Source of the DNA: Escherichia coli
Lineage (GTDB): Bacteria; Pseudomonadota; Gammaproteobacteria; Enterobacterales; Enterobacteriaceae
Reading direction: 5' to 3' (one strand)
Assembly (NCBI RefSeq): GCF_003334305.1
Contig: NZ_QOWS01000016.1
Length of the DNA: 64,000 nt
Below are positions 43,164 through 43,322 of the stretch, piece by piece. A program made the translations under genes and the position numbers. Numbering within the stretch: position 1 is the first letter of the stretch; every line of letters begins with the position of its first letter. Under the pieces are notes generated by a model. That model did not search any database. It worked only from the letters and a program-made list of their open reading frames with translations, and was not told where the DNA came from.

Positions 43164-43322
43164 TTCTCTGACTCTTCGGGATTTTTATTCCGAAGTTTGT
43201 TGAGTTTACTTGACAGATTGCAGGTTTCGTCCTGTAATCAAGCACTAAGGGCGGCTACGGCCGCCCTTAATCAATGCAGCAACAGCAGCCGCTTAATTTG
43301 CCTTTAAGGAACCGGAGGAATC

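Follow-up and report, generated by a model that had tools for sequence, protein, structure and literature searches.

The window analysed here, a stretch of 64,000 nucleotides from Escherichia coli, contains the genes for ribosomal protein S1 (rpsA) and for the beta subunit of integration host factor (ihfB), which belongs to a global architectural regulator, IHF. The spacer between the two genes holds the promoter of ihfB and several inverted structures, the most stable of which is a GC-rich hairpin (Table 1). Each of the 5426 complete E. coli genomes has the 301 bases around this hairpin at an identity of 99% or more, and they fall under rpsA and ihfB there. Adding 920,505 to a window position gives the position in the K-12 reference NC_000913.3 (963,601-964,200 compared), which places the hairpin at 963,751-963,774.

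Table 1. Features of the rpsA-ihfB region, in window coordinates.
Feature	Position	Strand	Remarks
rpsA CDS (ribosomal protein S1)	41490..43163	+	ORF, RefSeq annotation; stop 43161-43163
First hairpin 3' of the rpsA stop	43174..43195	+	9 pairs, then TTTGTTGAGT (TTTGTTG tail); terminator-like
ihfB promoter (ihfBp)	43210..43238	+	-35 TTGACA 43210-15, 17-nt spacer, -10 TGTAAT 43233-38, C at -13
Inverted repeat GATTGCAGG-N6-CCTGTAATC	43216..43239	+	spans promoter spacer, overlaps -10
ihfBp transcription start	43246..43247	+	963,751/2 in K-12; 5' UTR 76-77 nt
RNA stem-loop	43246..43269	+	10-bp stem (7 G-C pairs) closing C(UACG)G tetraloop
UACG loop	43256..43259	+	closing pair C-G, UNCG family
AUC tail to mapped steady-state rpsA mRNA 3' end	43270..43272	+	43272 = NC_000913.3 963,777
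ihfB CDS (integration host factor beta)	43323..43607	+	ORF, RefSeq annotation
Canonical ihfB terminator	43630..43658	+	stem + TTTTTT; internal comparison

The GC hairpin is built from the arms TAAGGGCGGC (43246-43255) and GCCGCCCTTA (43260-43269), which pair over 10 bp by perfect Watson-Crick matches, and energy evaluation gives it a dG of -20.1 kcal/mol. Its main traits had been read correctly in a first-pass annotation of the window: the perfect 10-bp stem with a 4-nt TACG loop at 43246-43269, the missing T-run after the stem (the sequence 3' of it is ATCAATGCAG) and the distance of about 55 bp to the ihfB ATG, for which we found 53 nt between the end of the stem and position 43323. The stem appears in both the minimum-energy and the centroid fold of the spacer (whole-spacer z = -6.1), and none of 100 dinucleotide shuffles of the spacer matched its stability. 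Across the 64-kb window there are five hairpins with a dG of -18 or lower (perfect stems of at least 9 bp) against about 0.1 expected from Markov simulations, and the rpsA-ihfB hairpin ranks second in stability among these five. A search allowing up to 3 mismatches found a single copy in the window, and across E. coli the hairpin has a median of one place per genome; an identity as a repeated extragenic palindrome (REP), which calls for many copies, was therefore rejected. An RNase III site was likewise ruled out, by the inference that a 10-bp stem is too short. The hairpin is real and of ordinary, known kinds.

The promoter of ihfB lies immediately upstream. It was assigned by eye and then confirmed by published start sites, given that our sigma70 consensus scan requires an A at the second position of the -10 box, where TGTAAT has a G, and so missed ihfBp. 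A preprint remarks that, of the sigma38 promoters in RegulonDB, ihfBp and just one other have a recognisable -35. In a comparison of 12 genera, 84.8% of the cells of the inverted repeat within the promoter are paired, and its 5' arm has G.U variants; the repeat may act as an operator or, in RNA that reads through from rpsA, as a hairpin. We also considered an autoregulatory site for IHF, as WATCAA-like strings (AATCAAGCACTAA and AATCAATGCAGCA) flank the stem of the GC hairpin; this candidate was dropped, the 3' TTR part being poor and not conserved in Citrobacter.

By both Term-seq and SMRT-Cappable-seq, the rpsA message of K-12 ends just past the GC hairpin. The Term-seq maps of Adams et al. 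2021 place the dominant 3' end at 963,777(+), with a score of 9925 in one growth condition and of 5221 in another; this corresponds to window position 43272, 3 nt past the stem, and their supplement holds no other 3' end among the positions 9636xx-9637xx (PMC7815308). The same tables give this site an intrinsic-terminator score of 14.4, where the authors take 3.0 or more as predictive, and a Rho score of 1.34, marked 'No', although the 800 nt downstream that enter the latter score include ihfB and the ihfB promoter, so that an effect might be hidden; the site was placed by these authors among the 3' ends in 5' UTRs (PMC7815308). In the SMRT-Cappable-seq data of Yan et al. 2018, full-length primary rpsA transcripts starting at 961,720, 961,861 and 961,892 run to 963,777, the sole rpsA termination site (TTS) in that dataset, which carries the label 'novelTTS', meaning that RegulonDB knows no terminator there (PMC6131387). 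The T-run hairpin that directly follows the rpsA stop, with 9 pairs, is real, as the first-pass annotation had reported when describing it as the weaker of the two, but no K-12 3' end falls at 43174-43195 in either the Term-seq or the SMRT-Cappable-seq tables. The structure there seems to be selected for a reason other than the rpsA 3' end. The other genera of our alignment A1 that have this segment keep a hairpin in this place, with unrelated sequence.

The end at 963,777 is leaky. Reads ending at and passing it number 109/67 and 38/15 in one sheet of the SMRT-Cappable-seq data and 65/3, 63/0 and 180/1 in the other, and the operon table of the same study lists rpsA-ihfB co-transcripts (PMC6131387). 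This amounts to a read-through at the hairpin of about 28-38% in one sheet vs 0-4% in the other, the two sheets being M9 and rich medium, where we assume which is which and take the sheet with low read-through to be presumably the rich one. The read counts thus demonstrate that a condition-dependent share of the transcripts passes into ihfB.

The 5' end of the ihfB message maps to the opposite edge of the same structure. SMRT-Cappable-seq has a transcript from a start at 963,751 to a termination site at 964,164 that covers ihfB (b0912) only (PMC6131387), and this start is window position 43246, the first base of the stem. In the Cappable-seq data of Ettwiller 2016, a strong start (score 364.9) lies at 962,975 of U00096.2 (PMC4782308). 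The geometry of ihfBp predicts a start at about 43245-43247, at the foot of the hairpin. Position 962,975 of U00096.2 equals 963,752, the second base of the stem, with a version offset of 777, which we take to apply. The two methods together put the ihfB start on base 1 or 2 of the stem; when the ihfB leader is folded from its mapped start, the hairpin occupies nucleotides 1-24 and no unpaired 5' nucleotide precedes it.

A single stem-loop therefore closes the rpsA message and opens the ihfB message, with the rpsA end lying downstream of the ihfB start. Public tables already give the coordinates of the two RNA ends, and our literature searches found no explicit account of this hairpin, of the rpsA terminator or of the dual position. 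The mapping of RNA ends, which the first-pass annotation had put forward as a check, is in this sense available for K-12 and places both ends on the hairpin. Its suggestions of a stability or processing determinant or of a partial attenuator agree with these published ends, namely a 3' end 3 nt past the stem, a condition-dependent read-through and an ihfB start at the stem. Its view that the hairpin is unlikely to be an intrinsic terminator finds no support in a sole K-12 rpsA-ihfB 3' end at the GC hairpin, a score of 14.4 against a threshold of 3 and a non-significant Rho score, and the implied choice of the T-run hairpin as the true terminator of rpsA is contradicted by the K-12 3'-end mapping.

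We compared 80 gammaproteobacterial ihfB loci, with one genome per species. In 76 of these rpsA lies directly upstream, with spacers of 60-240 nt, and a dominant GC-rich hairpin is found in almost every rpsA-ihfB spacer: its stability is reached by at most 5 of 100 shuffles in 68 of the 76 and by none in 53. Compared with its complement, the + strand hairpin has the higher stability in 57 loci and the lower in 8 (Wilcoxon 5e-9), since G.U pairs are tolerated, and among 47 tetraloop hairpins at the site UNCG or GNRA loops occur 28 times on the + strand and never on the - strand. From these sequence comparisons, the structure appears to have been selected as RNA, on the coding strand.

Within the Enterobacteriaceae the hairpin is almost frozen. 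The core AGGGCGGCU.CGGCCGCCCUU does not vary in 12 of 12 genera, and written with its loop (AGGGCGGC-U.CG-GCCGCCCU) it is the same in the 12; in alignment A1 the loop reads TACG in nine genera, TTCG in two and TATG in one. The conserved stem is 9 bp long in most genera and 8 bp in two, while the outermost U-A pair occurs in 2 of the 12 (it is Escherichia-specific) and also in locus L083. Of 5426 E. coli genomes, 5334 share the same 34-mer over the hairpin, as compared with 4919 and 5067 for the flanking 34-mers. As 8 of the 10 stem pairs never vary across these 12 genera, covariation is uninformative at this level, and the invariance of the stem could reflect a sequence-specific constraint. 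Across wider taxa, the GGGCGGC arm is recognisable in 35 loci with 21 distinct stems, among which pairing-preserving exchanges of G-C, A-U and G.U occur at every position (at stem position 6, for example, G-C 13 times, A-U 6 times, G.U once and C-G once); these 21 stems were picked as paired, so that their pairing holds by construction, while the double changes are real. Between families the stem sequences are replaced completely and the pairing is kept. The compensatory changes that had been proposed as a check of the stem were thus found in the wider comparison, in the exchanges among the 21 stems, and are missing within the Enterobacteriaceae, where the stem is unvarying. With these changes and with RNA ends on the hairpin, the condition that the first-pass annotation had named for its refutation does not arise.

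What follows the stem differs among lineages. A tract of 6-8 T is kept in the orthologs of Aeromonas (AAAAGGGCGGC...GCCGCCCTTTTTT), Vibrio, Halopseudomonas and Rosenbergiella, and is absent in most Enterobacterales, in Shewanella and in Photobacterium. On the upstream side, 10 genera of the Enterobacteriaceae have the same -35, the same -10 and the same number of nucleotides between the -10 and the hairpin, so that the +1 should always fall at the stem base. Most gammaproteobacteria that lack the inserted promoter have the hairpin too, and Mangrovibacter and Enterobacter sp. Ag1 have it without the TTGACA promoter; the role at a 5' end is therefore not its general function.

The comparison brought up several further features of these spacers. 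Locus L083 (290-355), which comes from a heavily sequenced lineage with an IhfB T21A variant and is probably Salmonella enterica, has the same 10-bp hairpin, -35 and -10 and differs from E. coli downstream. A CGGTAG motif, usually continuing as TTTAG, stands 0-8 nt past the hairpin in Enterobacterales outside the Enterobacteriaceae (Yersinia, Rahnella, Hafnia, Pectobacterium, Photorhabdus, Proteus, Budvicia and Arsenophonus; loci L016, L018-L026, L030-L032 and L041), and may represent a site of processing or an ancestral element of an ihfB promoter. In Vibrio (L042, L044, L045, L047, L048 and L049, at about 1000-1200), a canonical rpsA terminator is followed by a spacer of about 170 nt, the two ends of which (for example GGTAATACCAAT ... 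ATTGGTATTAC) pair just upstream of ihfB over a length of about 12-16 nt. In Pseudomonas neustonica (L059, about 750-830), ihfB is preceded by about 8 tandem copies of the heptamer GCAGCTT, and the stretch examined has no rpsA next to it.

Set beside known elements, the hairpin shares traits with more than one class. With canonical intrinsic terminators it has in common a GC-rich stem-loop (10 bp, 7 G-C pairs), A/U extensions of the stem (UAA with UUA), a mapped in-vivo 3' end near the stem that scores 14.4 and has a Rho score marked 'No' in the published data, and orthologs that are canonical terminators themselves. The U-tract of 7-8 nt expected of such terminators is missing: the tail past the GC core, TTAATCAA, has 3 T in 8, our terminator scan made no call at the hairpin, and the tail score is 2.0 vs 4.8 for the ihfB terminator, whose mapped ends are a Term-seq 3' end at 964,165 (PMC7815308) and a SMRT-Cappable-seq termination site at 964,164 (PMC6131387). 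In the same Term-seq dataset the 3' end lies 6 nt past the GC core here vs 8 nt at the ihfB terminator, and in the RNA the tail reads UUAAUCAA instead of 7-8 U. By position 43629, just before the stem of the ihfB terminator in the ihfB 3' UTR, the window has one extra C compared with K-12 MG1655 (acttgaacgCgagaaaag in the window vs ACTTGAACGAGAGAAAAG in the Term-seq flank).

The low U content is what the hairpin shares with the protective stem-loops without U-tracts described by Dar and Sorek, together with a stable GC stem, a sharply defined steady-state 3' end a few nucleotides past it and the absence of a paired A-tract and U-tract (PMC6061677). These authors proposed in 2018 that terminators may switch type by the U content after the stem (PMC6061677), and such a switch is seen here between Aeromonas or Vibrio, with a U-tract, and most Enterobacterales, with none. 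The class of Dar and Sorek was, however, defined on Rho-dependent transcripts, whereas the Rho score here is non-significant, and at this locus transcription runs on into a functional gene instead of ending diffusely. The position between co-transcribed genes and the condition-dependent fraction that passes recall operon attenuators and partial terminators. We found neither a competing antiterminator structure nor a leader peptide nor a fold that would bind a ligand, and an Rfam scan of 42800-43800 (E up to 10) returned sub-threshold matches alone, the best overlapping one being PhrS with 16.8 bits against a gathering score of 37.

Seen from ihfB, the hairpin resembles the 5' stabilizing stem-loops of ompA and papA, in which the stem sits at the very 5' end of the primary transcript with 0-1 unpaired nucleotides; here the stem starts within 0-2 nt of the mapped 5' end (963,751/2). 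It differs from them in that a stabilizing role for ihfB is argued by analogy and in that it also forms the 3' end of the upstream mRNA. To our knowledge such a double use has not been described for ompA or papA. Stem-loops at the 5' terminus are listed among the stabilizers of E. coli mRNAs in a review (PMC3997798), where Emory, Bouvet and Belasco 1992, Bouvet and Belasco 1992 and Bricker and Belasco 1999 are named as the primary papers and are cited here as that review gives them. For ihfB itself, work in Salmonella found that the mRNA half-life tracks the flanking UTRs and not the ORF: at 7 h the half-lives were 4.93 vs 2.19 min in the wild type and 3.38 vs 2.64 min after an ORF swap, with both UTRs exchanged together. 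The beta subunit of IHF is, moreover, in excess of alpha, and this excess correlates with a greater stability of the ihfB mRNA. By analogy, the hairpin at the 5' end may stabilize the ihfB message.

We consider it probable that the element is an ancestral rpsA terminator hairpin with a decayed U-tract, which still marks and protects the rpsA 3' end in a leaky manner and which serves in addition as the 5'-terminal stem-loop of ihfB. It would work as RNA of the + strand, with two jobs. In its first role, transcripts from the rpsA promoters run through the T-run hairpin and the ihfB promoter and end, at steady state, 3 nt past the stem-loop; this end could be formed by weak intrinsic termination with a poor U-tract, by a block to 3'-5' exonucleases that trim longer RNA, or by both, and its leakiness would let part of the rpsA transcription reach ihfB. 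Termination is suggested by the score of 14.4 in the published tables, by a Rho score short of significance and by descent from canonical terminators, while trimming is suggested by the poor tail (2.0 vs 4.8) and by the documented class of U-poor protective stem-loops in E. coli. Against termination stands the tail past the GC core, with its 3 U in 8, and efficient termination of rpsA should also stop the transcripts from ihfBp at +27, which is awkward for a purely positive role. ProQ as a binder of the 3' hairpin was considered and dropped, since ihfB levels are unchanged in an EHEC proQ mutant. In its second role, as transcription from ihfBp starts on base 1 or 2 of the stem, the monocistronic ihfB mRNA begins with the hairpin, which could hinder RppH and the 5'-end-dependent attack of RNase E and so prolong the life of the message, if ompA and papA are a guide. 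As for its evolution, the comparison of genomes suggests that the hairpin was the ancestral rpsA terminator of gammaproteobacteria, that its U-tract was lost in Enterobacterales and that, in the Escherichia-Citrobacter-Kluyvera group, an insert bearing a promoter placed the +1 on the base of the hairpin.

Two narrower versions of this picture are each plausible, although we hold both to be rather less probable. The hairpin could be a barrier to exonucleases only, in which case RNA polymerase would not be released there and rpsA transcripts would be trimmed back to the stem by PNPase and RNase II from real ends further downstream, formed at the ihfB terminator, by Rho or by RNase E cleavage in the ihfB leader. 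The absence of a U-tract, a 3' end just 3 nt from the stem base, the existence of rpsA-ihfB co-transcripts and the PNPase- and RNase II-dependent precise ends that follow U-less stem-loops in the class of Dar and Sorek (PMC6061677) all fit such a barrier, which is opposed by the Rho score of 1.34, by the intrinsic-terminator score and by the orthologs whose full U-tracts point to descent from a true terminator. Furthermore, in one SMRT-Cappable-seq sheet at most 1-3 reads pass the hairpin vs 63-180 that end there, so that processing would have to be very fast and complete. The hairpin could instead be a weak intrinsic terminator or attenuator only, which sets the ratio of rpsA to ihfB transcripts, its place at the +1 being incidental or even costly through termination at +27; we view this also as a minority possibility. 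It accounts for the 3' ends in both datasets, for the listing of the site by Adams et al. among 3' ends in 5' UTRs (PMC7815308), for a read-through that varies with condition and for the presence of the hairpin in most gammaproteobacteria without the inserted promoter, but it leaves aside the unvarying distance from the -10 to the hairpin in 10 genera with the +1 at the stem base, the link of mRNA stability with the ihfB UTRs in Salmonella and the established effect of 5'-terminal stem-loops (PMC3997798). A bolder reading, which we judge unlikely, is that the layout is a growth-phase switch: as the rpsA end lies 27 nt downstream of the ihfB start, heavy rpsA transcription during fast growth would cross and occlude the ihfB promoter, and when rpsA transcription falls the promoter would be freed and its transcripts would carry the hairpin as a cap-like protector of the 5' end, a fraction of them perhaps aborting as a 27-nt hairpin RNA. 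If true, one stem-loop would couple the termination of rpsA to the initiation and stability of ihfB.

That the palindrome acts at the level of DNA, as a cruciform or as an operator, over +1 to +24 of ihfBp, that a dimeric regulator would bind, strikes us as very improbable. In E. coli the palindrome is perfect and the strands are equally stable (-20.1 vs -20.3), it overlaps a regulated promoter, and its sequence is as invariant as its structure in 12 genera, all of which would fit a DNA element. It would leave unexplained the preference for the + strand hairpin (57 to 8 across taxa), the confinement of UNCG and GNRA loops to that strand, the turnover of stem sequences between families under constant pairing and the RNA ends that map precisely to the edges of the hairpin; the strand asymmetry and the identity of the loops speak likewise against the protein binding site on DNA that the first-pass annotation had listed as an option. 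A chance palindrome without function has a negligible probability. Palindromes can arise randomly, and nothing further speaks for this origin, which was excluded by the shuffles, by the window simulation and by the conservation across genera, the hairpin 34-mer being also better preserved in E. coli than its flanks.

With the end of the rpsA message at the GC hairpin instead of the T-run hairpin, the annotation that one would intuitively give to the terminator of rpsA is corrected. Current concepts are unchanged by this locus, which illustrates them: under our preferred reading, of a decayed terminator reused as a 5' end, it would be a clear case in nature of a terminator whose hairpin outlived the U-tract and was taken over as a 5' end by a newly inserted promoter. 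Elsewhere in the window, at 17531-17554, lies another perfect GC hairpin without a T-run (TCTGGCCGCGCGTATGCGGCCAGA, dG -18). Its sequence is in the Term-seq list of Adams et al. as a 3' end 'internal rarA', about 5 nt past the stem (PMC7815308), which makes it, next to the rpsA-ihfB hairpin, another case in this window of a 3' end defined by a U-less hairpin.
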